In this document: in pieces, positions 10,894 to 59,186 of the stretch
How the letters are laid out: every line of letters starts with the position of its first letter
Position numbering within the stretch: position 1 is the first letter of the stretch
Assembly (NCBI GenBank): GCA_017525525.1
Contig: JAFXSQ010000030.1
Coordinates: forward strand, 63-64,062
DNA length: 64,000 nt
Direction of reading: 5' to 3'
DNA from: Lachnospiraceae bacterium
GTDB lineage: Bacteria; Bacillota; Clostridia; Lachnospirales; Lachnospiraceae
Notes under the pieces: model-generated
Database searches by the model: none
Seen by the model: the letters and a program-made list of their open reading frames with translations, nothing else
Told to the model about the DNA's origin: nothing
Translations under genes and position numbers: made by a program

Positions 10894-10907
10894 TAACAGG
10901 CTGACAG

Positions 10908-10939
10908 AAGCCGCCGGAGGTAAAATACGGCGGCTTTTG
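10908..10939 (+). terminator. intrinsic terminator after ppk
   Basis: AGCCGCC ... GGCGGCTTTTGT. Confidence 0.75.
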
Positions 10940-11064: not shown

Positions 11065-11296
11065 CATCTACAGTCATGGCACAGGCCATGTCAGATTGTT
11101 AGTGCGCCGAATACGGCAAAGCCGCAAATTTAAGAGCGCACATGTTGGATTTCAGACGGTCGGGGCTGAGGTTGATTGTACATTTTGCACATACGCAATA
11201 TCCGCTTTGCGGGGAGGGGCGTACGGAATCTGTGAACAGGAAGCTTTAGTACCGATGCAGAAGAAAGCAACACACAGATTAAAGGAGGGTTTTTTT

Positions 11297-12869: not shown

Positions 12870-13799
12870 ATGAGGGGCAGCAAAAACATTTCCCGATACA
12901 ATAGATGGGGTTACATATTCTTGATTCCGTTTATTGTGATTTTTATAGTATTTCAGCTGATTCCGCTTGGAACTACCATCTATAACAGCTTCTTTGAACA
13001 TTATTTCGCTAACGGCGGTATCACCGAGATCGGACCTAAATTCGTAGGTTTGCAGAACTTCGGTACTCTCTTTAGTGACGGTCGTGTGCTTACATGCTTT
13101 AAGAACACGATGATTATGTGGATACTCGGTTTTATTCCGCAGATTATAGTTTCACTGCTTCTGGCTGCATGGTTTTCAGATCCGAGCTTAAGGCTTAAGG
13201 GACAACCGTTCTTCAAGACGGTTATCTATCTGCCGAATCTTATTATGGCATCTGCATTTGCAATGCTTTTCTTTACACTGTTTTCAGACTTCGGTCCCAT
13301 AAACAGTATGCTTACAAAGATAGGTCTTATTTCATCACCTATTAAGTTTACCAGTACAGTCATGGGAACGAGAGGACTCGTTGCCTTCATGAACTTCCTT
13401 ATGTGGTTTGGTAACACCACAATCCTTCTCCTCGCAGGTATGCTTGGTATAGATACCTCACTTTATGAGGCGGCTGAGGTTGACGGTGCTACATCATCAC
13501 AGGTATTTTTCAGGATCACACTTCCTATCTTGAGACCGATACTTATATATGTGCTTATCACATCTCTTATCGGTGGTCTCCAGATGTTCGATGTGCCCCA
13601 GATCCTTACGAGTGGAGCCGGAGGTCCTATCGTAGATGGAAAGAAGACTTCACAGACCCTTATCATGTTGCTTAACGACCACTTGTTCAGTAAGAACTAT
13701 GGTATGGCCGGCGCGCTTTCGGTTGTCCTGTTCATTATAACAAGCTTGTTGAGCTTCCTGGTATTTAAGATGACAAAGTCAAATGACGAATACAAATAG
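12870..13799 (+). CDS. sugar ABC transporter permease
   Basis: 309 aa, six hydrophobic segments, EAA loop (YEAAEVDGATSSQVFFRITLP). Confidence 0.9.
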   Translation: MRGSKNISRYNRWGYIFLIPFIVIFIVFQLIPLGTTIYNSFFEHYFANGGITEIGPKFVGLQNFGTLFSDGRVLTCFKNTMIMWILGFIPQIIVSLLLAAWFSDPSLRLKGQPFFKTVIYLPNLIMASAFAMLFFTLFSDFGPINSMLTKIGLISSPIKFTSTVMGTRGLVAFMNFLMWFGNTTILLLAGMLGIDTSLYEAAEVDGATSSQVFFRITLPILRPILIYVLITSLIGGLQMFDVPQILTSGAGGPIVDGKKTSQTLIMLLNDHLFSKNYGMAGALSVVLFIITSLLSFLVFKMTKSNDEYK

Positions 13800-13811
13800 G
13801 AGGGAAAAGGC

Positions 13812-14666
13812 ATGCCTAAAAAAGAAAGAGGAATAAATGTCGGTGCCAGAAGAACAATATCCTATGTTGTACTCGTTTTCTTCACGATATTGTGCTTGTT
13901 TTGGTTCTACGTGTTGTTTATAAATGCTACCCGTTCTCATTCGGAGCTCGCTACGGGCTTTACCATGATACCGAGCACGCATGCTATAGATAACCTGAAC
14001 AACGTGTTGCACGACACAATCCCGATATTCTATGGCTTATTAAACAGCCTTATTGTATCATTCTGCACTTGCATTTTGTGTACATACTTCTCAACTATGA
14101 CGGCATTCGCAATCCATGCTTACGAGTATAAGCTTAAGAAGTTCATCTTCGGATTCATCCTTGCCATCATGATGATACCTACACAGGTTACCGCACTCGG
14201 ATTTATTCAGTTGATAAGAAAGATGAACCTCATGCAGAGCTTCATACCTCTTATTGTACCTTCGATTGCGTCACCTATCGTATTCTTCTACATGAAGCAG
14301 TACATGGAAAGTGCGCTTCCTCAGGAGCTTCTTGAGGCAGCCCGTATTGACGGTGCAGGAGAGCTTAGAATCTTCAACACCATAGCATTACCGCTTATGA
14401 AACCTGCTATAGCGGTTCAGGCAATCTTCTCCTTTGTAGGAGCTTGGAATAATTACTTTACTCCTTCACTTATCCTTACAAAGAACGACAAGAAGAAGAC
14501 ATTGCCTATCCTTATTGCAAAGCTTCGTTCAGCGGACTTCGCTAAGTTTGATATGGGTAAGGTTTACATGATGATTACACTTTCAATTCTGCCGGTTATT
14601 ATTGTATACTTGCTGATGTCAAGATACATCGTCGGCGGTGTTGCCGTAGGAGCCGTAAAGGGCTAA
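13812..14666 (+). CDS. sugar ABC transporter permease
   Basis: 284 aa, EAA loop (LEAARIDGAGELRIFNTIALP). A terminator hairpin follows. Confidence 0.9.
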   Translation: MPKKERGINVGARRTISYVVLVFFTILCLFWFYVLFINATRSHSELATGFTMIPSTHAIDNLNNVLHDTIPIFYGLLNSLIVSFCTCILCTYFSTMTAFAIHAYEYKLKKFIFGFILAIMMIPTQVTALGFIQLIRKMNLMQSFIPLIVPSIASPIVFFYMKQYMESALPQELLEAARIDGAGELRIFNTIALPLMKPAIAVQAIFSFVGAWNNYFTPSLILTKNDKKKTLPILIAKLRSADFAKFDMGKVYMMITLSILPVIIVYLLMSRYIVGGVAVGAVKG

Positions 14667-27163: not shown

Positions 27164-29053
27164 CTAGTTCTTTGCCTGAATAAAGCTTATAAACTCATTG
27201 TGCGGCAGGGGCTTGGAGAAGTAGAACCCCTGTATGTAGTCTACGCCGAGCGCAGCCATGCTGTCGAGCTGCTCCTTGGTTTCGATTCCCTCGGCGACTA
27301 TCTTAAGTCCGAGCTCCTTGATCATGCGTATTGTGGCGCTCATAACAACCTTCGCGCGCGAGTTGGTAAAGTACTCCTGTGTCATGGTTCGGTCGAACTT
27401 TACTATGTCGACGGGCATGTCCACGATATAGTTCAGGTTGGACTCGCCGGTTCCGAAATCATCGAGAGAGAAGGTGCAACCGAGTTCTTTTAGGTTGTGC
27501 ATATTGTCGAGCAGGATGTTCCTCTGGTTTAAAGTGGAGGTCTCCGTGATTTCCAGGTTGATTGTCTCGGGAGGAAGTCCCAGCTCTTTCATAATATTCT
27601 TGAAATTATCTGCTAATTTTTCATTCTCGCACTGTGCTACGGAGAGGTTGATTTCCACATACTGTATGCCGTGCTTGCGCATGTGAGAATCCTTTAATGC
27701 GTGGCAGGTCTTTTCGAAGACTCGCTCACCGATTTTTTCTATGAGGCCGTACTCCTCGGCGACGGGTATGAAGCGTCCAGGCATCACTATTCCGCCGTCA
27801 CGATCTCTTAAGCGGGCGAGAGCTTCGGCAGAGACGAATTTCTTGTCTGCAATAGAGTAGATAGGCTGATAGAAGACCTCGACTCTGTCTTCTGCGATGG
27901 CATCCTTGATGAGGTTAACCATTTGCTGAAATTCCCTGATGTGACTTCCGGTCTCGGCATTCAAAAGAATGGTGTTCTCCTCGTCTCCGGTGTCATCCTT
28001 GTAATACTGGTACACGGCGTAGAATTCCTCGGAGGACTCAAACACGAGTGAGTCCGGTGCGTACATGAAGACTGCAGGTATGTGCTCGGATTGTCCGTGC
28101 CAGTCCTTTTCAAAGGTCTGCTTTATTATGTCTAAGTTAAATGCGCTCTCGATTTCATAGCTGTCAGACCTGTTCTTGTCGTAGATAAGCATGAAGCTGT
28201 TGCCTGTGCACCTGAACAGCTTCGCGTTCGGAAAGCTTCGAAGGAAGTTGGTCATCTCGATTAAGATATCGTTCTCGACATCTGCGGCAAGCTTCCATTC
28301 TGCCGGGGTGGTAATTACTATTGTTGAGAAAGGAGTTTTGTTGATGTACAGCTGCTTTAAGTATTCCCAAAGTGTCGCGGTTGAGAAGATACCCGTTAAT
28401 CTGTCAAGGTAGGCCTCGGGGTTTTCAAGCTCGGCATAGAGTATGGTAAGTCCGGTGGCTGAGCCAAATCCGACCAGCAGGAGCCCCGGATTGATGAACT
28501 GAATTCCGGCCGCTATAATCTCTAACATCATCCACGCGCGTACAGCCTTTTTTCTGTGTCTGTTTAGTGTCTTTGAGTAATAAATTGTAAATAAGAGTGT
28601 TGATATAATGAAATACGGAGCAAAGATGTATGTCGCTACATCTGCCGGACCGTAGCTGTAGATTACACGGCCTTCATGGTAATAGCTGATTGGAAGCGCC
28701 AATATAACGATTGCTCCTATAAAGAATACAATAAATTGCGCATATCTGAACTTCTTGCTCATTTTAAGTTTGGGTATGTCGCTGAAGGTATAGACCATGG
28801 CCATGTAGGAAACGGTCACAAGAAATACAAGGTAGAGCTTGGAGACGGCATCCACAAGCAGCGTAGGAAGCTTATCGGAATTGACAATCACAAAGATTGA
28901 TGATATATCCAGGATAACGCATAAGGTATTCAAGACAATTGATAACAGAAAGATCCGCTCGCTGTAAAGGCCGACACGGTCATGCTTTGAAGCAAAATAA
29001 ATCAGCAGCAGATCGATTACAAGTCCGCACATCTGAACTTCGATATTAAGCAT
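27164..29053 (-). CDS. membrane sensor with degenerate GGDEF and intact EAL domain (c-di-GMP phosphodiesterase)
   Basis: About seven N-terminal TM helices. The GGDEF position reads GNSFM. The EAL signature is intact (EALARL, NLEITE, DDFGTGES, EGIET, QGFYFSKP). The start at 29053 (MLNIEV) follows a G-rich SD; the ORF track extends to 29098 through a T10G8 tract. Confidence 0.85.
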   Translation of the reverse strand: MLNIEVQMCGLVIDLLLIYFASKHDRVGLYSERIFLLSIVLNTLCVILDISSIFVIVNSDKLPTLLVDAVSKLYLVFLVTVSYMAMVYTFSDIPKLKMSKKFRYAQFIVFFIGAIVILALPISYYHEGRVIYSYGPADVATYIFAPYFIISTLLFTIYYSKTLNRHRKKAVRAWMMLEIIAAGIQFINPGLLLVGFGSATGLTILYAELENPEAYLDRLTGIFSTATLWEYLKQLYINKTPFSTIVITTPAEWKLAADVENDILIEMTNFLRSFPNAKLFRCTGNSFMLIYDKNRSDSYEIESAFNLDIIKQTFEKDWHGQSEHIPAVFMYAPDSLVFESSEEFYAVYQYYKDDTGDEENTILLNAETGSHIREFQQMVNLIKDAIAEDRVEVFYQPIYSIADKKFVSAEALARLRDRDGGIVMPGRFIPVAEEYGLIEKIGERVFEKTCHALKDSHMRKHGIQYVEINLSVAQCENEKLADNFKNIMKELGLPPETINLEITETSTLNQRNILLDNMHNLKELGCTFSLDDFGTGESNLNYIVDMPVDIVKFDRTMTQEYFTNSRAKVVMSATIRMIKELGLKIVAEGIETKEQLDSMAALGVDYIQGFYFSKPLPHNEFISFIQAKN

Positions 29054-29457
29054 GCCCGTCACCCCCCCCAAAAAAAAAATTATTGATATAGTCACCATAA
29101 ACTAAGTAATTATAACATATTAATTCGAAAAATGATAGACATAATTCGACCTTTTGCACAATAAAAGTAGCCTTTTGTGGAGCTTTAAAGAGAAAATCAC
29201 TATAAATAACATAAGATTTTACGCAGCTTGTTAATTCTGTATATTTTCAAAGGGAAAATGTAAAATATTTGTTAAAAATTACAAAAAAATGCGTGACAAA
29301 TAGAAATATATAATTTATAATATAAATACTTATACAAATCATAAGTACTTATATAAATCGCTTGAACGGATACGTGATTTGTGAAGAAAATGTCGATTTT
29401 TGTACATTTGAGGGATACATTTTCAAGCATGTCATATAGGCGAAAGGAGGAGGGCCT

Positions 29458-30174
29458 ATGAGCGACGGCAATAAGATTAATCTTCTGCAGATGCAGAAAT
29501 ACTTTGAAGGTCAGATGCAAAGGATCCGCACGATAAGCGATCTGGAGCTTTCCGAGAATGATTTCAAGAGCCTTGGTATAAAGCTCAGGTCTCTCTGCTT
29601 TTTTACCGGAAGTGAGAATGACATAGAGGATTTCATGCTCTCCATAGCGGTTTATAGCTCTTATGCGCTTATCTACGGTAATGTGGGTAGTGATTTCGAG
29701 AGTATCGTGTGGATGGTCATGAATAACAGTCAGTATATGGAGCGCATGCACTTATCGATGCTCAAGAATGTGTACGATAGCTACGGATTGAACACCTTTG
29801 ATGTGGACGATGCAGATCTTATGACATCAGTGAGGAAGCTTGTGGCATTGCATGCGGGCATTCCGAACTGCGATAAGAACATGTTCTACGACATCTTAAG
29901 CGACTATTTAAGCTATCGCGATGTAGCTACCATGCTGGCCGAGATTTACGCAAGGCTTCCCGAGAGGAGCAGGTATATCTACGGTTTCATGGACAAGAAT
30001 GAGAGAGAGCGCATGATTCTTGAAGCAAGATCTCTTGTAAATGATGTGGTGGACGGTATACTCGACAGGAACGAGCTTGTGGAAAAGCACAGTTCGCTTT
30101 CATTAAGTCTGATAGACAGATGTCTTATGTGGAATGAGACGGGAAATCAGATTATAAGATACAGAGTATATTAA
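29458..30174 (+). CDS. hypothetical protein (orphan, helical)
   Basis: 238-aa ORF with a strong RBS (GGAGGAGGG, 3 nt, ATG). It is preceded by ~350 bp of very AT-rich DNA and ends 1 nt before the 3' end of rnpB. No motif recognised. Confidence 0.6.
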   Translation: MSDGNKINLLQMQKYFEGQMQRIRTISDLELSENDFKSLGIKLRSLCFFTGSENDIEDFMLSIAVYSSYALIYGNVGSDFESIVWMVMNNSQYMERMHLSMLKNVYDSYGLNTFDVDDADLMTSVRKLVALHAGIPNCDKNMFYDILSDYLSYRDVATMLAEIYARLPERSRYIYGFMDKNERERMILEARSLVNDVVDGILDRNELVEKHSSLSLSLIDRCLMWNETGNQIIRYRVY

Positions 30175-30520
30175 GACGTGAGCCGGACTGTAAGCCGGGT
30201 TATGTCGTGGGTGATCATCTATCTAGACCTTGTGTTACCACAAGGCTCAAGCGACCTACCTAAGACGCAGCGGGCAGCTGCATGGTCTTAATTTGGTCTT
30301 GCTCCGGATGTGGTTTACAGAGCCTGCCCTGTTACCAAGACAGCGGTGAGCTCTTACCTCGCCTTTCCACCCTTACCGGTAAAACCGGCGGTATATTTCT
30401 GTTGCACTGGCATGGGAGTCGCCTCCACCGGACGTTATCCGGCATCCTGCCCTATGGAGCCCGGACTTTCCTCACCTGCCTTAGCGGCAGCCGCGATCAC
30501 CTGTCTGACTCACGTCAGAC
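30175..30520 (-). ncRNA. rnpB: RNase P RNA, bacterial type A
   Basis: The minus strand reads GAGGAAAGTCCGGGCTCCATAGGGCAGG..., GTGCAACAGAAATATACCGCC, GGTAAGGGTGGAAAGGCGAGGTAAGAGCTCACCG, GGAGCAAGACCAAAT and ATAACCCGGCTTACAG. P1 pairs GACGTGAG (5' end) with CTCACGTC (3' end). Ends are approximate, within about 5 nt. Confidence 0.92.
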
Positions 30521-32400: not shown

Positions 32401-32482
32401 TATGCATACGCAATGTAATTTGCTGCTTTGCAGCACGCGTGCGGCGCAACGCGTAGAGGGGCTGCGCCTTCCCTAAGCGATT
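32401..32482 (+). repeat. family-3 terminator-attached repeat
   Basis: TATGCATACGCAATGTAATTTGCTGCTTTGCAGCACGCGTGCGGCGCAACGCGTAGAGGGGCTGCGCCTTCCCTAAGCGATT. It abuts the stop of the convergent GGDEF gene. Confidence 0.85.
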
Positions 32483-34802
32483 ATTGTTTATCTTTCTCTA
32501 CATTCTTTCTCTTATTCTTCTTGTTCTCGTAGAGCGCCACGTCCGCGGAGTGGAGCACAAGCTCGATATTAAGCGAAGGCGCGCAGGTAAATACGCTGGT
32601 ACCAAGGCTTAAATCAATGAAGTAAGGCTTGCCGCTTTCCTCATTAAGGTCGTCGTCGTAGCGGCGTATGCGGTCAAGTATCTTCTCGGGTTTATCGTCT
32701 CTTTCGACAAAGGTAAAGGCTACGAACTCGTCACCGCCGATTCTTCCGACGATATCATCTTCGTCAAGGCTGTCCGTGAGTATGTCGGCTATGCTCTTTA
32801 TCGCAAAGTCTCCGTCGCTGTGGCCGAACTTGTCGTTGACCTGCTTCAGGTTATCCATGTCCGCGAAGATGAGCATCGCGCGTTTGCCTTCGTTCTCGTG
32901 AGCGTTGACCAAGCGCTGTACGCTGTCCAAGAAACCGCGGCGGTTGTTGATGCCGGTCAGAGCGTCGGTTACCGAGAGCTTGTTCAAAAGCTGGTTTTTC
33001 TGGTTTAATTCCTCGGCTGACTGAACGAGCTGATCCTGCGCCTTTAACTGCTGCTGCATGAGCGAGATGAAATTCAGCGAGGTCGCAAGCTGAAGGCTGT
33101 TCGGGTATATGTTACCGAACTGGGCTATGTCTATCTCTCCGACAAAAAGTCCATAGTGTATATTGTTGGTGAAAAGCGGAGTGATGACTAAGGTTCTTCT
33201 TCTGTCCAAAGGTGTGTAGGCATTGAAGAATATGTCCGATGAGGAGATTATTCTTTCGTTGCCGGTAAGGAATGTCGTAATGCCATTGTCGTTGGCTGCC
33301 TGTAGCAGCAGAGTCTTCGGAATCTTCCAGGAACCGTCAGGCATGAGCCTGATCGGATCATCGTAAATGTAAAGATAAGAGCTAATGAAGCCCGAATTCT
33401 GCAGCTTATCCATAATGAGTCTGAAGCAGGACTCCTCGTCATCGCTGTACGCAAGCGTGTCTCTGGTTATGTACATAGAGGACCAGATGGAATTCTTGTA
33501 TTCCCTCTCTGTCATGAACAGGGTGTTGGAGATGCGCAGCATCAATGTTGACATTACATCGGAGAAGCATGCCGCAACCTGGTTGCTCAGCTCTTCGTCT
33601 TCAATAAGATCCTGAATCATGATTGAGAATTCGTTTATAACGTAGCTTAAGCGGTCTATGCTGAAGTATAACCTGAACAGAGGCTTTTCAAGAAGCTTTA
33701 TCAGCATATCCCTGACCGGCTTGCTTTCGGGAGCCTTGCCCGATATAACCGGTTGCAGGATTGGATTGAGCAATGCGGTAAACGCTTCCTCCAACTCGTC
33801 ATGGAGGAAAGATTCTTTGAAATTCTCTAATGTATGGTCGAGAATGAATTTTCTGATTTTACTTAATTCCGATGAAGAAGAAATCTTCTCGTGCTTGGCG
33901 CAAATCTGTCTTGTGCGGCACTCTCCGCAACCGCAGGAGGAGCGGACCACCAGGCTTGAGCTCAGTGTATTTATGTCGGTAAAACCAATCTCGATAAGGT
34001 CTATGGTCTGCTTAACCGCATTGTAGCCCATATCGATTATCTGGTTATGAACTGTGGTAAGCTGGGGATCCAAAATCATGGATACCGGTGAATCGTCATA
34101 ACCGGTAACCAAGATATCCCTGCCTATCTCAAGACCTCTGGACTTAATAGCGGTATAACCGCCGGAGGCCATCTGATCATTTGCGAAAACCAGGGCGTCG
34201 ATCTCGGGATGTGCATCTAAGAGATTGCCTACAAGTTCAACCGTGAACTCGGAGAAATCACCGTAGGCGATGAGGTCTTCATCCACGGGGATGTTGTTAT
34301 CGATAAGTACCTGCTTGTAGATCTCCAAGCGTTCCATGGCGTCGGCGTTCTCCTGACGTCCGCTTACGAAACCTATGTGGCTGCATTTATGATCCTTTAT
34401 GAGGTGTTCGACAGCGAGCCTCATACCCGTCACACCCTCGGTGTAAAGGTAGGGATAGCCGGGAACCTCAATCTCTATGGTAAGAATCGGTATATCGAAA
34501 TTCGAGAGGAATTCTTTGATGTTGGTCTGAGAGAGGAAGCTTCCGATGGAACCGATTGCAACGATGATTGCATCAAGGTTCTGCTTTGAAGCATAGTAGT
34601 AGATGGAGTTATACTGATAATCGAAACGGGCGTTCATAGGATCGTCATAGGCAGCGTTCATGTACATGCCGGGGAATACGATGAGGTTTACATCGAATTT
34701 CTTTGCAGCATAATCAACGCCCTTACAGACCTCGTACGCATAGTCGTTATCTACGTGGCAGGTGAAAAATCCTATGTTTAGTTTTGAGTTCGCCTTTTTC
34801 AA
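32481..34802 (-). CDS. cytoplasmic LacI-type periplasmic-binding-protein-fold sensor fused to GGDEF diguanylate cyclase
   Basis: 773 aa, TTG start after GGAGG, no signal peptide. The N-terminal ~280 aa are a sugar-binding PBP fold (FANDQMASGGYTAIK, VTGYDDS). There is a Cys cluster CGCGECRTRQIC, an unassigned ~290-aa middle region, and a C-terminal GGDEF domain (DALTGINNRRGF, RIGGDEFVAF). Confidence 0.85.
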   Translation of the reverse strand: MKKANSKLNIGFFTCHVDNDYAYEVCKGVDYAAKKFDVNLIVFPGMYMNAAYDDPMNARFDYQYNSIYYYASKQNLDAIIVAIGSIGSFLSQTNIKEFLSNFDIPILTIEIEVPGYPYLYTEGVTGMRLAVEHLIKDHKCSHIGFVSGRQENADAMERLEIYKQVLIDNNIPVDEDLIAYGDFSEFTVELVGNLLDAHPEIDALVFANDQMASGGYTAIKSRGLEIGRDILVTGYDDSPVSMILDPQLTTVHNQIIDMGYNAVKQTIDLIEIGFTDINTLSSSLVVRSSCGCGECRTRQICAKHEKISSSSELSKIRKFILDHTLENFKESFLHDELEEAFTALLNPILQPVISGKAPESKPVRDMLIKLLEKPLFRLYFSIDRLSYVINEFSIMIQDLIEDEELSNQVAACFSDVMSTLMLRISNTLFMTEREYKNSIWSSMYITRDTLAYSDDEESCFRLIMDKLQNSGFISSYLYIYDDPIRLMPDGSWKIPKTLLLQAANDNGITTFLTGNERIISSSDIFFNAYTPLDRRRTLVITPLFTNNIHYGLFVGEIDIAQFGNIYPNSLQLATSLNFISLMQQQLKAQDQLVQSAEELNQKNQLLNKLSVTDALTGINNRRGFLDSVQRLVNAHENEGKRAMLIFADMDNLKQVNDKFGHSDGDFAIKSIADILTDSLDEDDIVGRIGGDEFVAFTFVERDDKPEKILDRIRRYDDDLNEESGKPYFIDLSLGTSVFTCAPSLNIELVLHSADVALYENKKNKRKNVEKDKQ

Positions 34803-40571: not shown

Positions 40572-40691
40572 GCCGGAGTAAAATCTCAAAAATCGTGTAA
40601 TAAAATTGTAGTAAATTTTTAAAAGATGTTGTATAATCAAAAATAGTATTCAAAAATATCGCATACTAATATTTTGCGGAGGGTAAAAACT

Positions 40692-41102
40692 ATGGCAGTA
40701 ATTGATGATCTGATTCGCGAGGAGAACGGAGGCCTTTCCTTCGGTAATTATTCATTGACAGCGAAGACCAAGAAGGACGGATTTAACTACAACGGAGACA
40801 TCTATAAGATAAAGACCTTCAATGAGATCACCAAGCTCGAGAAGAACGGGATGTTCGTGTATGAGTCTGTTCCGGGAACCACAGTTCACGGTTTTACAGC
40901 TACGGATAAAGAGGTGAATTTTGTGGTTGAGGGAACCACGGATTCACAGATTACACTTGAACTTGAGGCCGAAAAGGAGTATAAAGTTCACGTTAATAAG
41001 GTATTTGTGGGTGAGATGAAGACTAATCTCGGAGGAAAGCTCAACATAAGCGTTGAACTCGAAGAGGGCAAGCAGGTTGACATACTGGTTGAGAAACAGT
41101 AG
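40692..41102 (+). CDS. hypothetical protein (beta-rich, 136 aa)
   Basis: The ATG lies 8 nt after GGAGGG. No recognisable motif. It is 46 nt upstream of the MshEN/CheX-like gene. Confidence 0.6.
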   Translation: MAVIDDLIREENGGLSFGNYSLTAKTKKDGFNYNGDIYKIKTFNEITKLEKNGMFVYESVPGTTVHGFTATDKEVNFVVEGTTDSQITLELEAEKEYKVHVNKVFVGEMKTNLGGKLNISVELEEGKQVDILVEKQ

Positions 41103-41148
41103 AATCTCGGCTTAATCTAAACATATCTGACTTTCGGGGAGACATATA

Positions 41149-42048
41149 ATGTTTGGTGTGTATTTCGGAAAATACTTAGTGGATATGGGAATTATCTCGG
41201 AGGAGGTCTATGCGGGCCTTCTCGAGTCTACTAAGAATGACAAAGTGAAGATGGGACTGCTCGCGGTGGACTTAGGGCTGATGACTGAGGAACAGGCCCA
41301 GGAGGTCAACCAGCTTCAGCAGATGCTTGACAAGCGCTTCGGAGATATAGCTATTGAGAAGGGCTACCTTACCGAGGATGACGTGTATGATCTTCTCGAC
41401 AAGCAGGGTGATGCTTACCTGCTTTTTGTGCAGGCCGTGCTTGAGAGCGGCATCATGGATTTCGAGGATATTAAGACCGAGCTTGGCAATTACCGCAGGT
41501 CGGAGCATCTTACGCTCACTGATGTGGAGGCCATAAAGACCGGAGATGTAGACAGGATAGTGCCTATCTTCATGAAGGATATGGAGATGCCGGAGCATAT
41601 CAGGCAGTACATTTCTCTTTCGGCCAGGAATATAGTCCGCTTTATCGACCGCTTCTTCATCATGGAGAGGATAGAGAAGATAGATGATTTCGAGCTTCCG
41701 TGCGCGGTTATGCAGATAATCCACGAGGACGGGGATATGCTTATCGCTCTGGGGGGGCTCAAGGAGGATTTGGAGGTAGTCTCGGGGAACTTTGTAAAGA
41801 ATGTTGTCGGAAGGGATGACATTGATTTCGATTCGCTTGATGTGGCAGGGGAGTTCCTGAATGTCAATAACGGACTTTACGTGTCCAGTGTTCTGTGCGA
41901 AAGAACCGATGTAAGGGTTGAATCGCCGGTTATAAAGACCGATGGTTTAAGGCTTCGCACGGACGGAAAGATGTACATTGTTCCGTTGCTTATTGATGAA
42001 AGACCTATTGAGTTCATCATTTGCACCGGTAATGTAAATATATCATAA
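41149..42048 (+). CDS. candidate c-di-GMP receptor: three tandem MshEN-type (T2SSE_N-like) motifs fused to a CheX/CheC-like domain
   Basis: 299 aa. Residues 5-28, 34-57 and 63-86 fit the 24-residue RLGxxLLxxGLLxxxxLxxxLxxQ pattern, with 5-residue spacers. The C-terminal part carries D231-x3-E235-x2-N238-x21-P260 and a CheX-like strand pattern. Confidence 0.65.
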   Translation: MFGVYFGKYLVDMGIISEEVYAGLLESTKNDKVKMGLLAVDLGLMTEEQAQEVNQLQQMLDKRFGDIAIEKGYLTEDDVYDLLDKQGDAYLLFVQAVLESGIMDFEDIKTELGNYRRSEHLTLTDVEAIKTGDVDRIVPIFMKDMEMPEHIRQYISLSARNIVRFIDRFFIMERIEKIDDFELPCAVMQIIHEDGDMLIALGGLKEDLEVVSGNFVKNVVGRDDIDFDSLDVAGEFLNVNNGLYVSSVLCERTDVRVESPVIKTDGLRLRTDGKMYIVPLLIDERPIEFIICTGNVNIS

Positions 42049-42076: not shown

Positions 42077-43441
42077 ATGTCAGAAGCAAATTCACAGGGT
42101 GGGTGGCGCTCGAATAAGTGGGTACGCGCCGCAATCCCCGCACTGCTGCTTCACTGCAGCATAGGTACTGTTTACTGTTGGTCGCTGTTCTCGGAGAGGA
42201 TCGCGGAGCACATAGGTCATACGAAGGGAGCCGTAGAGTGGGCGTTCTCATTCGCCATATTCTTCCTCGGCATGTCTGCCGCATTCCTCGGAAATGTAGT
42301 TGAGAAGGACATTCACAAGTCATCGCTTATAGCAACCATCTGCTTTGCGTCAGGTATGGCTTTGACCGGTTTCTTTATTTACTACGGTGGGGAGCATCAA
42401 AAGAGTACCTTGGCACTTGTCGGAATATATCTTTCTTACGGTTTTATCATGGGCGTAGGCCTCGGTACAGGTTATCTGTCACCGGTTAAGACACTTATGC
42501 TCTGGTTCCAGGACAGAAAGGGTCTTGCAACAGGTCTTGCCGTCGCAGGCTTTGGTGCAGCTAAGGCTATCGCAAGCCCGATCATGGAGTGGATGCAGGA
42601 TAATCTCGGAGACGGAGCTATCTACAAGATGTTCTGGATCCTTGCAGGCGTATACTTCGTGATGATGTTCGTAGGACATCTTCTTCTTGCCAAGCCGGCA
42701 GGCTGGGTTGAGCCTCAGGGCAAGGGAGAGAAGCCGAGCATTATCTCTGTATTAAAGACAAAGCCTATAACCAACTATATCGGTATCTGGGTTATGTTCT
42801 ACATCAACATCACCTGTGGTCTTGCACTTATCTCTCAGGAGAAGATGATCGTTAAGTGTATCGGTCTTGCAGCTTCGGCAGGTATAATCTCAACCGTATC
42901 TGCAGTATTCAATGCGGGCGGCCGTCTCGGCTTCTCGGCATGGGCTGATATGATGAAGGACAGAAATACCGTATATAAGCTTATCTTCATCCTTTCGATA
43001 GCATTTACCGGACTTGTAATACTTACACAGGGTATCAAGAACGGTGAGGGCAATACACTTCTCATAATACTTGTGCTTACGCTTATCTTCTTCGTAAATG
43101 CAGGTTACGGCGGCGGTTACTCCAATGTTCCTACGCTTCTGTCAGACCACTACGGCATGGGTTCGATAAGCGCCATCCACGGCATTACACTTTCTGCATG
43201 GGCATTTGCGGGACTTACCGGTAACCAGGTTGCAACACTTATTGTGAACAACTCAGGTGAGTGGATAGAGCACGGTACCGACGCGGCAGGCAATGTGATT
43301 AAGGTAAACCCAATCGGTTATCAGAATGTGCTTTTCTTCACTATAGCACTTTACGCAGTAGCCCTTGTCCTCTGCCTTGTACTTGTAAGACCTACAGATA
43401 AGGCTCTTGAAGCAAAGGCTGCAAAGAAGGCTGCTAAGTAA
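42077..43441 (+). CDS. MFS transporter (oxalate/formate antiporter-like family)
   Basis: 454 aa, about 12 TM segments with a central loop. It lies 28 nt downstream of the previous gene and has its own AAGGAG RBS. Confidence 0.8.
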   Translation: MSEANSQGGWRSNKWVRAAIPALLLHCSIGTVYCWSLFSERIAEHIGHTKGAVEWAFSFAIFFLGMSAAFLGNVVEKDIHKSSLIATICFASGMALTGFFIYYGGEHQKSTLALVGIYLSYGFIMGVGLGTGYLSPVKTLMLWFQDRKGLATGLAVAGFGAAKAIASPIMEWMQDNLGDGAIYKMFWILAGVYFVMMFVGHLLLAKPAGWVEPQGKGEKPSIISVLKTKPITNYIGIWVMFYINITCGLALISQEKMIVKCIGLAASAGIISTVSAVFNAGGRLGFSAWADMMKDRNTVYKLIFILSIAFTGLVILTQGIKNGEGNTLLIILVLTLIFFVNAGYGGGYSNVPTLLSDHYGMGSISAIHGITLSAWAFAGLTGNQVATLIVNNSGEWIEHGTDAAGNVIKVNPIGYQNVLFFTIALYAVALVLCLVLVRPTDKALEAKAAKKAAK

Positions 43442-43542: not shown

Positions 43543-43614
43543 GGTCGATTGGTCAAGCGGTTAAGACGTCGCCCTCTCACGGCGAAAACAGGGGTTCGAT
43601 TCCCCTATCGACTG
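43543..43614 (+). tRNA. tRNA-Glu (anticodon CTC)
   Basis: Cloverleaf folded by hand. Acceptor GGTCGAT/ATCGACT, anticodon stem TCGCC/GGCGA with loop CTCTCAC, T arm AGGGG-TTCGATT-CCCCT. No encoded CCA. Confidence 0.9.
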
Positions 43615-43617
43615 CTC

Positions 43618-43656
43618 AAAGCTCTTGAGAATTGTTCTTCAAGAGCTTTTCTTTTT
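43618..43656 (+). terminator. intrinsic terminator after tRNA-Glu
   Basis: AAAGCTCTTGA / TCAAGAGCTTT stem followed by TTTTCTTTTT. Confidence 0.8.
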
Positions 43657-43722: not shown

Positions 43723-45399
43723 ATGGATAGAAAAGAGAGATATCAAAAGCAGATAAAAAAGAGGGTTTTGATAGTCGAGGACGAGTACATTAACCGTGAG
43801 ATGCTGGGCTTTATGCTCAACCGTGAGTATGAGGTTCTGTATGCAGAGAACGGCAAGGAGGCCTTGGATACTTTAAGAAACACGGAGGATATCTCCGCAG
43901 TGCTGCTTGACCTTATGATGCCTGTTATGAACGGCTTTGAATTCCTTGACATAAGTCAGGGGGATTCAACCTTAAAGAGAATACCGGTTATCGTTATGAC
44001 TGCGGATGAGACCGCGGAGGTTAAGAGCCTGAACTTAGGCGCAGCGGACTTTATAAGCAAGCCGTATGACGCTCCCGAGGTTATACTTGCGAGGATAAAA
44101 AGGATAATAGAGCTTGCCGAGGATAAGCTCATAATCAATGCAACCGAGCGTGACGAGCTGACAGGTCTCTACACGAGAAAGTTCTTCCAGGAGTATGCGG
44201 CCCAGCTCGATCATTATTATCCGGACTGGAAGATGGATGCGGTATCGCTCGATATAGATAATTTCCACCTGATCAACGAGCTCTACGGCAAGAGCTTCGG
44301 TGATAAGGTTTTGGTGAGAATAGCGGATCTCTTAAGAGAGAGCCTGTCTACTATGGTAGACGGTTACGCCTGCAGATACGATAGAGATATGTTCTATATG
44401 TACTGCACGCACCTTGATGATTACGAGCCGTTAAGAAGGCATATTATAGACGGTCTTGCTGACCTGACCGATACGCATAAGATAAGAGTCCGCTTCGGTG
44501 TCTACCTGAATGTAGACAGGGATATGGAGTTCGAGCAGCGCTTCGTGCGTGCTAAGAGGGCAAGCGACAGCATAAAGGGCGACTATTCGAAGCGCATAGC
44601 TGTCTATGATACCGAGGCGCACAACGAGGCACTCTTATCGCAGAAGCTTATAAGCGATGTGCAGACGGCTATTAAGAATAATGAGCTTATAGTATATTAC
44701 CAGCCGAAGTATGCGATCGACGGCGAGACTCCGGTGCTTAAGAGCGCGGAGGCTCTGATAAGGTGGAACCACCCCGAGTTCGGTATGCTTCCGCCGTCAA
44801 GGTTCGTTCCGCTCTTTGAACAGAACGGGTTGATACAGCTTCTCGATCACTTCGTGTGGAAGGAGGCCGCAAGGCAGATAAAGGAGTGGAAGGGCAGGCT
44901 TGGAAAGACTGTTCCCGTATCCGTAAATGTATCGCGAATGGACATCTATGATGACAGGCTCGAGGAGAGACTCGTATCTCTTGTAGAGGACAACGGTTTG
45001 GAATCGGGAGAGCTTCTTCTTGAGATAACGGAGTCGGCTTACTCCGAGAATCCCGAGCAGCTCATAGAGGCTGTCGATAAGCTCAGAAAGAGGGCCTTCT
45101 TCGTGGAGATGGATGATTTCGGTTCGGGCTACTCATCGTTAAATATGCTTTCCGTTCTTCCTGTGGATGCATTAAAGCTTGATATGCAGTTTGTGAGAAA
45201 TATGCACAAGGATGAAAAGAGCTTAAGACTTATAGAGCTTATAATGGGGATAGCGGACTACCTTTCCGTTCCGGTTATTGCTGAGGGAGTAGAGGAGAAG
45301 GAGCAGCTTGACCTGTTGAAGAAGGTTGGCTGCAGTATAGTCCAGGGATATTACTTCTCAAAGCCTGTAGCACCGGATGAGTTTGAAAAGTTTCTGTAA
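43723..45399 (+). CDS. response regulator with REC, degenerate GGDEF and EAL domains
   Basis: 558 aa. The REC domain has the acceptor Asp in VLLDLMMPVMNG. The GGDEF position reads RYDRDMF. The EAL domain is intact (EALIRW, LEITES, DDFGSGYS, EGVEEKEQ, QGYYFSKP). No adjacent histidine kinase. Confidence 0.88.
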   Translation: MDRKERYQKQIKKRVLIVEDEYINREMLGFMLNREYEVLYAENGKEALDTLRNTEDISAVLLDLMMPVMNGFEFLDISQGDSTLKRIPVIVMTADETAEVKSLNLGAADFISKPYDAPEVILARIKRIIELAEDKLIINATERDELTGLYTRKFFQEYAAQLDHYYPDWKMDAVSLDIDNFHLINELYGKSFGDKVLVRIADLLRESLSTMVDGYACRYDRDMFYMYCTHLDDYEPLRRHIIDGLADLTDTHKIRVRFGVYLNVDRDMEFEQRFVRAKRASDSIKGDYSKRIAVYDTEAHNEALLSQKLISDVQTAIKNNELIVYYQPKYAIDGETPVLKSAEALIRWNHPEFGMLPPSRFVPLFEQNGLIQLLDHFVWKEAARQIKEWKGRLGKTVPVSVNVSRMDIYDDRLEERLVSLVEDNGLESGELLLEITESAYSENPEQLIEAVDKLRKRAFFVEMDDFGSGYSSLNMLSVLPVDALKLDMQFVRNMHKDEKSLRLIELIMGIADYLSVPVIAEGVEEKEQLDLLKKVGCSIVQGYYFSKPVAPDEFEKFL

Positions 45400-55490: not shown

Positions 55491-58400
55491 ATGGTTAAGA
55501 AGATGAAAATGTTCGCTAAGCGAGCATGCGTCGGTATCATGTCGGCGGCGATGATGATGACCGCTGTTCCGGCGTTGCCGATACTGGCAGCAGAAGAGGA
55601 TCCGGTTGTGGGCTTCCCTATGGACGGACACGACGACGGATACGCTGATGCGTACAGTGAAGAAGGCTATTCCCTCGTGTGGAACGATGAGTTCGATGAA
55701 GACACGCTTAACACAGATGACTGGCTGGTAGAGTTACATCCGGCAGGCTGGGTTAACAGTGAGCTTCAGGAGTATGTAGGACTTGAGAACGGCAATATTG
55801 AGGTTAAGGACGGCATACTTTCAATCAAGACAAAGGCAACAAAGAAGGCTGACGCGCCCGAAGGACCGGCAAATCCGGAGGTTTTGAAGGGTGATGGCTT
55901 TGACGCAACCAATTGGGGCGGCGGAGCAGGCGGTTCAGCTAAGGGCTCCGTAGCTTATGATAGCGGAAAAGCAGTTCTCACTATCGAAGATTCCGGAGCT
56001 GAAAACTGGAACTTCCAGATTCAGCAGAGCAATCTTGCGCTTGAGGCAGGTCATGAGTATGAATTTACTGTGAAGGCAAGCTCAACCGTAGCAAGAAAGA
56101 CAGAAATAAGCGTACTTGACCCGGCAAACAATTATGCTTGGTACGGCGGAACAACCGCAAGTATCGGAACCGAAGAGGGCGAGATAAAGTTCAACTTTGA
56201 AATGAAGGACACCAGTGAGACTATAGCTCTTCAGATTAACTTCGGTCTTATAGGCGGAAACGCTGAGGATAGCAGCCCGGCTGTTGTAACTCTTTCGGAT
56301 GTATCATTAAAGGATCTTTCTGTAACATCCGATACGGTTGATGTTAAGAAGACCTACGACATCACTTCAGGCCGTATATCTACTGATGATAAGCACGAGT
56401 TTACCTACGGACGTTTTGAAGCTAAGCTCAAGGTTCCCGAGGGTAAGGGATATTGGCCGGCATTCTGGCTCTTAGGAGATCAGAGCATCTACGGACAGTG
56501 GCCGAGATGCGGCGAGATAGACGTAATGGAAATCGTCGGTGACTCTGTTGATACAACACAGGGTAATATCTGGTCAGGATACACAAGCAGCACTACAAAG
56601 GACAATCCTAAGAAGAAGATTCTTGGTGAGGGCGAAGGCACATTTGCAGACAGCTGGCATACCTTTACACTTGACTGGGAGCCCGGTAAGGTTACCTGGT
56701 ATGTTGACGGAGAGAAGATGCATGAAGTAAGCGACTGGTACACAGGAAAGGATGCAAACAGCATCATTACCTATCCCGCACCTTATGATCAGCCGTTCTA
56801 TGTAATTCTTAACCTTGCTTTCGGCGGACAGATGGGTGGTACTCCTACACAGGAAACCATGGATGATATGGACAATCAGGCATATCAGATTGATTATGTG
56901 CGTGTATACCAGAAGGATCCGGAAGTGTACAAGGAGATGTTAGAGAACTGCAAACGTCCCGAGCAGGTTTCAACCTTCAGAGAGCCTGACACCGAAGGAA
57001 ACTACATCATTAACGGTACCTTTGCTGAGGATATCGACAGGTCAGAAGGCGCAACAGGCGATACAAACTGGATTCTCTATACCGAGAGCGATGCAAAGAA
57101 TGCATCCGCAGAGGTAGAAGACGGCGTAATCAAGATTGATCCGGGTGTTGTCGGCGATAAGAACCACAGCATTCAGCTTAAGCAGCAGAGCATCCCTATG
57201 TACAGGGGATGGGAGTATGAGCTTTCGTTCGACGCATGGGCAGATGAGGCTCGTACAATGATAGTTGATATCTCCGGACCGAATAACGGTTGGACAAGAT
57301 ATTACGATGATACAACATTTGATCTTACAACAGAGAAGCAGCCATTTACGGTTCCTTTCACAATGGAGAAGAAGACCGATGACAACGGTTCTCTTGAATT
57401 CAACTTCGGAAACCAGGGTTCAACCGTACCTGTTTATATCACAAATGTAAAGATTACACACAAGTCGGGAGAGTTAATCCCTGAGGATACTTCAAAGTCT
57501 GTCGGCATAGACGGCAACTATATATACAACGGTTCCTTCGACCAGGGTGATGACAGACTCGGTTACTGGGATATTGAGGCCGCTGAAGGAAGTGTAAGCG
57601 TTACCAACGAAGGCACAAGAAGAGAGTTAAAGGCCGTTATTACTATACCTGAGGGCGCAACTGAGGCCGGTCCGGTACATATTTCACAGAATGAGCTTGC
57701 TCCGATAGCTGCAGGTAAGTATGAGATGAGCTTCGATGCTTACATGGAGGAAGGCTCAAGCGCAGATGCGCTTACCGTTAGTGTTGCAGGCAAGGAAATC
57801 AAGCCTGAGCTTACAACAGCAAAGAAGAACTATTCAGAGAAGTTTGAGGTAATAGAGAGTCTTACACGTGACCAGTCAAATGTGGTATTTACATTCGATA
57901 AGCCGGGTACATACTATCTTGACAATGTATGGCTTGTTGAGGATGCTATGATTAAGAACGGTTCATTCTCTGCAGATATGGCAAGCTGGGAGCCGTATAT
58001 CGACGGCGCAGCAGATGCTTCTTATGTAGTAGACAGCCAGCACGGCAAGGACTATGCATTTGAGATGACTGTCAACAAGACAGGTACCATGGATTGGCAG
58101 GTAGCATTAAATCAGGAGAACATCCTTCTTGAGAAGGGCAAATTCTACAAGGTAACATTTGCGGTAAAGAGCACAATCAATCGCCAGATAGTATGGAGCT
58201 TCCAGCGCAACGGAAGTGTTCGCGGCGATGATACATGGACCAATTACAGTGGTGATGGCACAACCGATGTTGGACCGACATGGAAGACTGTTGAAGCGGT
58301 ATTCGAGATGAAAGAGGATACTGATGATAAGACAAGATTCAACATCAGCATGGGTGCGGTTAACGGTGCTGAGATCAACGACATCCACTATGTATACATT

Positions 58401-59186
58401 GATGATGTTACACTTGAAGAAACAGAGGAGCCTGTTCCTACAACTAAGGACATCACAACCGCTACAGTAACCGGTCTTGGCACAAAGGCTTGGACAGGTT
58501 CGGAGATTACTCCGGTTGTAACCGTTAAGGACGGCGATGTAACTCTTAAGAAGGGTACAGATTACACTGTAGAGTACAAGAACAACAAGGCAGCAGGTAA
58601 GGCTTCTGTAGTTATAACCGGTATCGGCGACTACGAAGGCACTATTACAAAGAGCTTCCTTATAAAGAAGGTTGCCTTAAAGTACAGAGCTTATGTACAG
58701 AAGAACAACTGGATGGCATGGCAGACAGCTAACATCTCCGGAACCAAGGCTTCGGGAGCTGCAGGCTACGCTGATATGAAGAAGGATCTCAGAATGGAGA
58801 CGATCCAGATGCAGCTTTCAGGCATATCAGGCTCGGTTGAGTACAGAGCTTACTGCGCAAAGAAGGGCTGGACACAGTGGGCAACAACCGCTGATACAAA
58901 AACTTACGCAGGTACAAAGGGTGAGTCAAGAAGAGTAGAGCTTATCCAGCTTAAGGCTAAGGGACAGGTTGCTACACTTTACGATATGTACTTCAGAGCT
59001 TACTCAGAGAAGTTCGGATGGCTCGGATGGGCTAAGTCAGGTGAGAAGGCAGGAACTCAGGGTTATGCATATAAGCTTGAGGCATTCCAGGTTAACTTCG
59101 TACCGAAGGGAACAACCTTCTCAATCAAGTCTTCAAAGACCAAGAGCTTCTATGATAAGACAAAGGACGGCGCTAACCCTAAGTAA
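55491..59186 (+). CDS. secreted multidomain beta-glucanase: GH16 catalytic domain (interrupted by a CBM4/9-like insert), three further CBM4/9-like modules, Ig-like domain, three ChW repeats
   Basis: 1231 aa with a signal peptide. GH16 motifs are WNDEFD, WVNSELQEY and GEIDVMEIVG. CBM-like modules repeat. The C-terminal ChW repeats are YRAYVQKNNWMAWQ, YRAYCAKKGWTQWA and FRAYSEKFGWLGWA. Confidence 0.9.
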   Translation: MVKKMKMFAKRACVGIMSAAMMMTAVPALPILAAEEDPVVGFPMDGHDDGYADAYSEEGYSLVWNDEFDEDTLNTDDWLVELHPAGWVNSELQEYVGLENGNIEVKDGILSIKTKATKKADAPEGPANPEVLKGDGFDATNWGGGAGGSAKGSVAYDSGKAVLTIEDSGAENWNFQIQQSNLALEAGHEYEFTVKASSTVARKTEISVLDPANNYAWYGGTTASIGTEEGEIKFNFEMKDTSETIALQINFGLIGGNAEDSSPAVVTLSDVSLKDLSVTSDTVDVKKTYDITSGRISTDDKHEFTYGRFEAKLKVPEGKGYWPAFWLLGDQSIYGQWPRCGEIDVMEIVGDSVDTTQGNIWSGYTSSTTKDNPKKKILGEGEGTFADSWHTFTLDWEPGKVTWYVDGEKMHEVSDWYTGKDANSIITYPAPYDQPFYVILNLAFGGQMGGTPTQETMDDMDNQAYQIDYVRVYQKDPEVYKEMLENCKRPEQVSTFREPDTEGNYIINGTFAEDIDRSEGATGDTNWILYTESDAKNASAEVEDGVIKIDPGVVGDKNHSIQLKQQSIPMYRGWEYELSFDAWADEARTMIVDISGPNNGWTRYYDDTTFDLTTEKQPFTVPFTMEKKTDDNGSLEFNFGNQGSTVPVYITNVKITHKSGELIPEDTSKSVGIDGNYIYNGSFDQGDDRLGYWDIEAAEGSVSVTNEGTRRELKAVITIPEGATEAGPVHISQNELAPIAAGKYEMSFDAYMEEGSSADALTVSVAGKEIKPELTTAKKNYSEKFEVIESLTRDQSNVVFTFDKPGTYYLDNVWLVEDAMIKNGSFSADMASWEPYIDGAADASYVVDSQHGKDYAFEMTVNKTGTMDWQVALNQENILLEKGKFYKVTFAVKSTINRQIVWSFQRNGSVRGDDTWTNYSGDGTTDVGPTWKTVEAVFEMKEDTDDKTRFNISMGAVNGAEINDIHYVYIDDVTLEETEEPVPTTKDITTATVTGLGTKAWTGSEITPVVTVKDGDVTLKKGTDYTVEYKNNKAAGKASVVITGIGDYEGTITKSFLIKKVALKYRAYVQKNNWMAWQTANISGTKASGAAGYADMKKDLRMETIQMQLSGISGSVEYRAYCAKKGWTQWATTADTKTYAGTKGESRRVELIQLKAKGQVATLYDMYFRAYSEKFGWLGWAKSGEKAGTQGYAYKLEAFQVNFVPKGTTFSIKSSKTKSFYDKTKDGANPK

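Follow-up and report, generated by a model that had tools for sequence, protein, structure and literature searches.

A putative c-di-GMP-responsive CheX-family phosphatase with a four-motif MshEN-type array in a Lachnospiraceae bacterium

The 64,000-nucleotide (nt) stretch of contig JAFXSQ010000030.1 from a Lachnospiraceae bacterium (GenBank assembly GCA_017525525.1), here called the window, contains an open reading frame (ORF) for a protein of 299 amino acids (aa), and the identical protein at NCBI is entered as 'hypothetical protein IKO61_04835 [Lachnospiraceae bacterium]'. It joins an N-terminal array of repeats of the MshEN type, a domain that binds cyclic di-GMP (c-di-GMP) in its founding member, to a C-terminal domain with the fold of the CheY phosphatase CheX, an architecture abbreviated as (MshEN_N)2-CheX. 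Its parts are given below; the repeats were scored with the 11-position relaxed motif of Wang et al. (2016; PMC5013675).

41149..42048 (stop codon included), forward strand: coding sequence of the (MshEN_N)2-CheX protein, 299 aa; translated ORF
41161..41232, forward strand: MshEN-type motif 1, aa 5-28, YFGKYLVDMGIISEEVYAGLLEST; relaxed motif 10/11
41248..41319, forward strand: MshEN-type motif 2, aa 34-57, KMGLLAVDLGLMTEEQAQEVNQLQ, aligning to MshE motif I (R9-Q32); relaxed motif 10/11
41335..41406, forward strand: MshEN-type motif 3, aa 63-86, RFGDIAIEKGYLTEDDVYDLLDKQ, aligning to MshE motif II (R38-Q61); full match, 11/11
41422..41493, forward strand: degenerate MshEN-type motif 4, aa 92-115, LFVQAVLESGIMDFEDIKTELGNY; relaxed motif 9/11, with in-register profile matches to motifs 1-3
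41497..41586, forward strand: conserved linker folded as a helical hairpin, aa 117-146, core EAIKTGDVDRIVPIF, distinct from the MshEN motifs; the structural model has helices at 123-131 and 134-142
41587..42045, forward strand: CheX-fold domain, aa 147-299; Foldseek, with Pfam CheX found in 25/35 homologues
41839..41928, forward strand: CheX signature D231-x3-E235-x2-N238-x21-P260, on helix 229-249; alignment

The protein belongs to a large family. A search of 1.84 billion cluster representatives returned 2704 matches at E <= 1e-3, of which 282 reach E <= 1e-30, and relatives occur in at least 499 species-representative genomes, the best 80 being nearly all labelled Lachnospiraceae or Clostridia and coming from rumen and gut. 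Residue conservation was counted over 151 sequences, namely the best 150 representatives, almost all of them full-length (~290-300 aa), and the window protein itself; the median identity to the latter is 29 %. A closer alignment of 35 sequences provided the family profile, and in it the N-terminus MFGxYFG is invariant.

The initial annotation of this gene had described a triple array, made up of the segments aa 5-28, 34-57 and 63-86 with the spacers KNDKV and QMLDK, and had seen the best fit in the third segment. The segments and spacers are exactly as it gave them, and motif 3 does fit best. What it overlooked is the degenerate fourth repeat at aa 92-115, set off by the further five-residue spacer GDAYL, so that the array has four members and not three. 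Elsewhere in the protein the relaxed motif scores 7/11 at best, and the periodic pattern is not due to chance, since in none of 20,000 composition-preserving shuffles did three segments spaced 29 residues apart each reach 9/11. When 29-residue slices of the family alignment are compared profile against profile, units 1 to 4 align with each other in register (motif 1 against motif 3, E = 4.3e-7), and the half comprising aa 1-58 matches the half comprising aa 59-116 over 47 columns (E = 1.3e-7). It follows that the array consists of 2 x 2 motifs, that is, (MshEN_N)2. A fifth repeat at aa 121-144 was considered and rejected, as it scores 3/11 and has no profile match to units 1-4. The linker that covers this region, in which K130, D133, D135 and F141 are invariant in the 35-sequence alignment, likewise has no profile match to the four units.

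The assignment of these repeats to MshEN, which the initial annotation had made from the motif, holds at the level of profile, family and fold. The NCBIfam model NF053729 ('cyclic di-GMP-binding domain, MshE-related') scores 46.2 bits on aa 40-86 (E = 2.9e-12), the curated cut-off being 38. The family profile built from 35 homologues finds the MshE structure 5HTL with E = 1.3e-4, placing aa 32-86 on MshE 7-61; this value needed the family profile, as a single-sequence phmmer search of the Protein Data Bank gave only marginal matches to MshE and PilF (E ~0.07). An AlphaFold2 model built on the family alignment (mean predicted local distance difference test score 91.7, predicted template modelling score 0.83) was compared with known structures, as had been proposed together with the gene, and fits both the MshE-c-di-GMP complex and CheX structures. 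Its Foldseek match to the complex (5htl_B) covers 53 columns with a root-mean-square deviation of 0.9 A, 30 % identity and probability 1.00. The superposition comes without query coordinates, and motif pairs 1+2 and 2+3 are equally identical to MshE (16/53 each). Alignment by hhalign to MshE 9-61 ranks pair 2+3 first (4.9e-9), followed by 1+2 (1.4e-6) and 3+4 (3.6e-6). The internal duplication (1+2 against 3+4) fits the '(MshEN_N)2' notation of Wang et al. (2016), whereas the profile scores favour 2+3.

The central pair also carries the better ligand contacts. At the MshE contact positions R9, L10, G11, L25, L29, Q32, R38, L39, G40, L54, L58 and Q61, pair 2+3 has K34, M35, G36, A50, N54, Q57, R63, F64, G65, V79, L83 and Q86, respectively. 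Of 15 key positions of MshE it keeps 13, the two Gly and the two Gln among them, and it retains the Arg38 equivalent and the second hydrophobic triad; the substitutions are Lys for R9, Ala (A50) for L25 and Asn (N54) for L29, and the other contacts are conservative. Guanine recognition in MshE relies on backbone amides left free at the motif Gly, and the variants G11L and G40I bind c-di-GMP poorly, if at all (Wang et al., 2016; PMC5013675). These positions are well kept across the 151 sequences, both in motif 2 (K/R34 in 148, G36 in 147, Q57 in 149) and in motif 3 (R/K63 in 137, G65 in 149, L83 in 139, Q86 in 151). Pairs 1+2 and 3+4 fit the contact residues less well: motif 1 has Tyr instead of the guanine-stacking Arg and Thr instead of the terminal Gln, while in motif 4 the Arg is missing and V94 and Y115 stand in for the motif Gly and the Gln. 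The model shows a short first helix in motifs 2 and 3, beginning at motif position 2; in motifs 1 and 4 the corresponding helix begins three residues further towards the N-terminus. We infer that only motifs 2 and 3 would be ligand-competent. N54 (window 41308-41310) is Asn or His in 135/151 representatives and Asn in 79/79 Lachnospiraceae loci, and this polar residue at the guanine-stacking Leu29 position suggests a modified ligand contact.

The N-domains of XpsE and GspE serve as dimerisation, localisation or partner-docking modules. The repeats of the window protein could likewise be relics with such a role, degenerate and no longer binding c-di-GMP, on a CheX phosphatase whose activity is constitutive or otherwise controlled. 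Motifs 1 and 4 without key contact residues and N54 at the Leu29 position are what one would then see, and comparable substitutions have cost XpsE and other MshEN domains their ligand, L29R being among the changes blamed in XpsE (Wang et al., 2016; PMC5013675). Furthermore, some of the proteins catalogued in that article have no recognisable motif, and Pfam T2SSE_N finds no match in the window protein, neither in the full sequence nor in either half, up to E <= 10. This last result is, on the other hand, consistent with the listing of the architecture under 'MshEN_N only, no T2SSE_N1 domain' in the same article (PMC5013675). We regard the relic explanation as unlikely, for three reasons. The contacts of motifs 2 and 3 (Gly, Gln, Arg/Lys and the hydrophobic triads) are under strong purifying selection at 29 % median identity, and because of this conservation a purely structural helix bundle is hard to reconcile with the data; NF053729 scores above its cut-off; and genes with GGDEF or EAL domains are repeatedly found as its direct neighbours, in contexts that otherwise have nothing in common.

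The C-terminal half, described at the outset as CheX-like, is recognised as such by its fold. The 13 best Foldseek matches of the model are all CheX or CheX-like (E = 3.6e-7 to 2.4e-5) and cover the whole target with target-normalised template modelling (TM) scores of 0.62-0.76; 3hm4, 3h4y, 1squ, 1xko and 3hzh are matched at 0.63-0.76 with probability 1.00. Structures of CheC, FliY and FliM match much more poorly (target-normalised TM 0.29-0.48). Pfam CheX (PF13690) is found in 25/35 full-length homologues that are 44-57 % identical to the window protein (best E = 7.9e-10), and NCBI names some homologues "chemotaxis protein CheX"; DUF4388/PatA_N matches occur in 10/35. The searches with MshEN and CheX profiles proposed for this gene thus succeeded in part, through NF053729 on the window protein and Pfam CheX on its homologues, and failed in part, as the window protein itself has no direct match to T2SSE_N or CheX, nor one to CheC. 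Matches of the window protein to FumaraseC_C, DUF5659 and Rotamase_2 were below cut-off and were dismissed as helical-repeat noise.

D231-VAG-E235-FL-N238 and P260, picked out in the initial annotation, are present, and D231, E235, N238 and P260 are invariant in the 35-sequence alignment and in 79 species loci; among the 151 sequences, E235 is kept in 140 and N238 in 139. The family profile aligns aa 207-294 with residues 65-152 of Thermotoga CheX, an alignment that alone has E = 0.18 and runs gap-free through the active site, where D231/E235/N238/P260 fall on S/E96/N99/P, E96 and N99 being the Thermotoga residue numbers. The difference between the x21 spacing found here and the x22 of the consensus is immaterial, because the spacing is identical to that of Thermotoga CheX. 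The equivalent Asn is essential in Vibrio cholerae CheX (N94A; PMC12799141). A domain of the CheC/FliY type, a pseudo-two-fold of ~200 residues with two signatures, was considered and rejected: a single signature is present, reading the sequence of the domain's first helix (aa 149-166) reveals no second E-x2-N, and the TM scores to CheC and FliY are 0.37-0.48. Two further residues are conserved to a degree comparable to the catalytic Glu and Asn, R164 (window 41638-41640; 151/151) and Q189 (41713-41715; 143/151). They are not recognised CheX active-site residues and could be points of contact with the sensor module, the ligand or CheY.

A CheX-like domain need not be an enzyme. The CheC/CheX/FliM fold family has non-enzymatic members such as FliM, which is among the lower-ranked Foldseek matches, and the window sequence stays below the Pfam CheX threshold. 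The protein might accordingly be a c-di-GMP adaptor that binds CheY or a FliM/FliY-like partner in order to sequester or deliver it without catalysis, as the initial annotation had allowed. Non-enzymes of the FliM type are not known to retain the catalytic pair of Glu and Asn with the flanking D...P signature. This signature is near-invariant across the family, and the CheX fold match (TM 0.71-0.76) lies far above that to FliM or CheC (0.29-0.48), so we give the adaptor very little credence.

The gene neighbourhoods of the family were surveyed at the best 80 species loci, 78 of which have enough downstream sequence. In a first clade, clade A, a gene for 119 aa follows the MshEN-CheX gene at 22-30 nt (55/78 loci) and encodes CheY, as shown by a full-length match to Thermotoga CheY (E = 6e-35); a gene for a HAMP-GGDEF-EAL protein lies upstream and is divergently transcribed. 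Distant members (~24-25 % identity) have a stand-alone gene for a receiver (REC) domain immediately upstream. In addition, nine of the ten members of 400-440 aa (421-440 aa) carry a REC domain fused to the C-terminus, giving (MshEN_N)2-CheX-REC. One such REC-fused cluster, from Butyrivibrio crossotus (P0152), comprises 961 sequences labelled only 'response regulator', and with so many members the REC fusion is therefore common in human gut metagenomes. With CheY downstream, REC upstream and REC fused, three independent arrangements tie the CheX domain to a CheY-type receiver, and the survey of homologues suggested in the initial annotation thereby links the family to CheY, with GGDEF and EAL genes recurring alongside.

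One Lachnospiraceae metagenome-assembled genome contains two tandem paralogous (MshEN_N)2-CheX genes (9094-9999 and 10001-10912; P0055 and P0021, 301 and 303 aa) that are separated by 1 nt, with no CheY, GGDEF or EAL gene nearby.

The window protein is part of another clade, clade B, which accounts for 24/80 loci and is 46 % identical to clade A, compared with 58-62 % within clades. A CheY gene next to the MshEN-CheX gene is absent from all 24 clade-B loci. D231, E235, N238, P260, R164, Q57 and Q86 are nevertheless invariant in clade B, and its genes often lie directly beside EAL or GGDEF genes. REC domains occur in clade-B neighbourhoods only in the synteny group of the window and at one other locus; the GGDEF-EAL neighbour of the clade-B member P0023, for example, has none. 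The surroundings of the gene in the window are as follows.

40674-41102, forward strand: upstream ORF, 142 aa (136 aa from the second Met), 46-nt gap to the MshEN-CheX gene
41077..41105, forward strand: promoter-like TTGACA-17-TAGAAT, 11/12, 44 nt 5' of the ATG and sharing bases with the stop codon of the preceding ORF; consensus scan
41136..41141, forward strand: Shine-Dalgarno sequence GGGGAG, 7 nt 5' of the ATG; read from the sequence
42077..43441, forward strand: gene for a major facilitator superfamily (MFS) transporter, 28 nt 3' of the MshEN-CheX gene; Pfam
43543-43615, forward strand: tRNA-Glu(CTC) gene, between the MFS and REC-GGDEF-EAL genes
43618-43649, forward strand: strong terminator with a 12-bp stem, 3' of tRNA-Glu
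43723..45399, forward strand: REC-GGDEF-EAL gene, with the receiver domain nearest to the CheX-like gene in the window; Pfam
27164-29098, reverse strand: EAL gene; Pfam
32481-34802, reverse strand: PBP-GGDEF gene; Pfam

The gene order, the 46-nt and 28-nt gaps and the presence of three c-di-GMP turnover genes (EAL, PBP-GGDEF and REC-GGDEF-EAL) within ~15 kb of the MshEN-CheX gene agree with what had first been noted, as does its position outside any che/fla cluster; no che or fla gene is found in the whole 64-kb window. The promoter-like site, whose -10-like hexamer is the part that overlaps the upstream stop codon, is a positional hint, given that such sites are fewer in the region than in shuffled sequence. 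The upstream ORF has no significant match in Pfam or NCBIfam. The MFS gene is possibly co-transcribed with the MshEN-CheX gene. A functional partnership was considered for both neighbours but rejected, because each is kept beside the MshEN-CheX gene only at the loci of 86 %-identical orthologues and because the upstream ORF lacks family matches. The tRNA-Glu gene and the terminator between the MFS and REC-GGDEF-EAL genes place these two in separate transcription units. A search of the window for c-di-GMP riboswitches and other regulatory RNAs detected only RNase P RNA and tRNA.

Characterised CheX proteins act on CheY-type proteins. For the clade without CheY, a different receiver could have become the substrate, for instance that of the REC-GGDEF-EAL enzyme encoded 1.7 kb downstream, which would close a feedback loop, c-di-GMP then governing how far its own turnover enzyme is phosphorylated; the REC-GGDEF-EAL protein is, if speculatively, the candidate substrate of the CheX domain in the window. 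Clade B stands apart from clade A (46 % versus 58-62 % identity) with its catalytic residues invariant and none of its 24 loci bearing an adjacent CheY, EAL and GGDEF genes directly flank many of its members, no che or fla genes lie in the window, and the window and the 86 %-identical orthologues at the loci L009 and L012 keep the REC-GGDEF-EAL gene nearby. This linkage is, however, seen in one close synteny group only and is interrupted by the MFS gene and the tRNA; the GGDEF and EAL proteins flanking other clade-B genes have no REC domains; the characterised examples of CheX speak for CheY; and a CheY gene may lie elsewhere in the genome. We therefore judge a non-CheY receiver to be distinctly improbable. 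Just as improbable, in our estimate, is the wider picture in which this sub-clade has left chemotaxis altogether and uses a c-di-GMP-gated phosphatase on a non-CheY receiver such as REC-GGDEF-EAL, with the further unusual features of a nested four-motif sensor, a central pair that alone binds, and an invariant Asn/His in place of the guanine-stacking Leu. If the REC-GGDEF-EAL enzyme were indeed the substrate, c-di-GMP turnover would be subject to direct product feedback via dephosphorylation of the receiver.

The reading that we prefer, and hold to be probable, is that the protein is a c-di-GMP-responsive CheX-family phosphatase for a phosphorylated CheY-type protein. The presence of CheY genes beside, and of receivers fused to, members of the family, with GGDEF and EAL genes alongside, gives strong independent support to a c-di-GMP-gated phosphatase of phosphorylated CheY (CheY-P). 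The domain identities, the fold, the residue conservation and this genomic coupling are observed; what we infer is that c-di-GMP is bound, that the domain is catalytic, in which sense it is regulated, and which substrate it has in the source organism. Several points weigh against the reading. On the sensor side, these are the missing T2SSE_N match, N54 at the MshE Leu29 position, which recalls the L29R change of XpsE, the loss of Arg from motifs 1 and 4 (and of Gly and Gln from motif 4), and the fact that the entry for the architecture in Wang et al. carries no reference, with a warning there that some listed proteins have no recognisable binding motif (PMC5013675). On the phosphatase side, Pfam CheX (PF13690) has no match in the full protein at E <= 1 or in aa 147-299 at E <= 10. 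In the genomic context, clade B has no adjacent CheY and the window no che or fla genes, and GGDEF and EAL genes, whose nearness is given here as a raw observation, are numerous in Lachnospiraceae.

As a c-di-GMP-responsive phosphatase, the protein would be a cytoplasmic two-part signalling protein, with a sensor at aa 1-116 and the phosphatase domain at aa 147-299. The four 24-residue motifs of the sensor would form two tandem helical modules of the MshEN_N type, and one c-di-GMP would most likely be bound by the best-conserved central pair, motifs 2+3. In the Borrelia CheX-CheY3 complex, Glu and Asn of CheX are inserted into the active site of CheY. The CheX domain of the window protein would place E235 and N238 in the catalytic pocket of CheY-P in the same manner and thus accelerate hydrolysis of the aspartyl-phosphate. 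Occupancy of the sensor by c-di-GMP would change the activity or the availability of the CheX domain, so that local c-di-GMP, set by the neighbouring GGDEF and EAL enzymes, would be coupled to how far a CheY-like protein is phosphorylated. In chemotaxis of the Firmicutes type, as in Bacillus, CheY-P promotes smooth swimming, and c-di-GMP generally suppresses motility. If c-di-GMP activated the phosphatase, cells might therefore, to speculate further, be biased towards tumbling.

The architecture itself has been recorded before. '(MshEN_N)2 - CheX' is listed for Deltaproteobacteria and Firmicutes, with Geobacter lovleyi Glov_2742 (ACD96455) as exemplar and no characterisation cited (Wang et al. 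2016, Nat Commun 7:12481, PMC5013675, Supplementary Table 4). The initial annotation had left undecided whether the architecture was catalogued; with this listing, its novelty is lower than had been assumed. Domain order and content are the same in the window protein, namely four 24-residue motifs, no T2SSE_N1 and then CheX; the entry is purely bioinformatic, and the likeness to Glov_2742 is one of architecture only. In a full-text literature search, no experimental study of an MshEN-CheX fusion was found. Not previously described, as far as we found in that search and in the accessible parts of the survey, are the size of the family in Lachnospiraceae, the module of HAMP-GGDEF-EAL, MshEN-CheX and CheY, the REC-fused variants and the CheY-less clade.

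Compared with the founding domain, MshEN of V. cholerae (5HTL), the window protein shares the 24+5+24 layout, motifs 2+3 lying on MshE 9-61 with 30 % identity and with both Gly, both Gln and Arg38 conserved, but it lacks the MshEN_C/T2SSE_N1 subdomain and the ATPase and has two extra, degenerate motifs on the flanks. With the stand-alone CheX proteins (1XKO/1SQU of Thermotoga maritima, the CheX-CheY3 complex 3HZH of Borrelia burgdorferi and 3HM4 of Desulfovibrio) it has in common the fold of ~150 residues and the single D/S-x3-E-x2-N...P active-site helix with the Thermotoga spacing, and the family is likewise paired genetically with CheY. It differs from them in sequence (12-15 % identity only), in its N-terminal sensor extension of 146 residues, and in the invariant R164 and Q189, which are specific to the MshEN-CheX family. 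The nearest functional analogue is V. cholerae PlzC, a separate PilZ-type c-di-GMP receptor that inhibits CheX in trans and independently of c-di-GMP (PMC12799141, 2026). In V. cholerae a c-di-GMP receptor is functionally wired to a CheX that tunes CheY-P; the same would hold here, with an MshEN-type receptor fused in cis.

Flagellar motility is slowed by c-di-GMP via PilZ-type brakes and, in a few species, via proteins acting on the chemotaxis pathway. No shorter wiring between c-di-GMP and chemotaxis would be known so far than a c-di-GMP receptor fused to a phosphatase of CheY-P, and in many Lachnospiraceae genomes the MshEN-CheX gene is part of a compact, readily testable module with those for a HAMP-GGDEF-EAL sensor and CheY. 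Its value lies in a well-defined experimental target in abundant gut and rumen bacteria, rather than in a new class of system.

Four other observations were made in the window. The class A RNase P RNA (305.6 bits; 30175-30512, reverse strand) overlaps the end of a 238-aa ORF (29458-30174) without a Pfam match, which may be spurious. A protein of 849 aa (15891-18440, forward strand) combines a microbial-type PARG domain, a GDSL lipase/acylhydrolase and a Ser/Thr kinase in an unusual three-way fusion. A 557-aa ORF (11096-12769, forward strand), for which Pfam gives no match at E <= 1e-5, immediately precedes two genes for ABC permeases (12870-14666) and may encode a divergent solute-binding protein. 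Finally, a secreted-type glycoside hydrolase of 1231 aa (55491-59186, forward strand) with GH16, three CBM4_9 domains and a ChW repeat fits the lifestyle of a fibre-degrading rumen or gut Lachnospiraceae bacterium.

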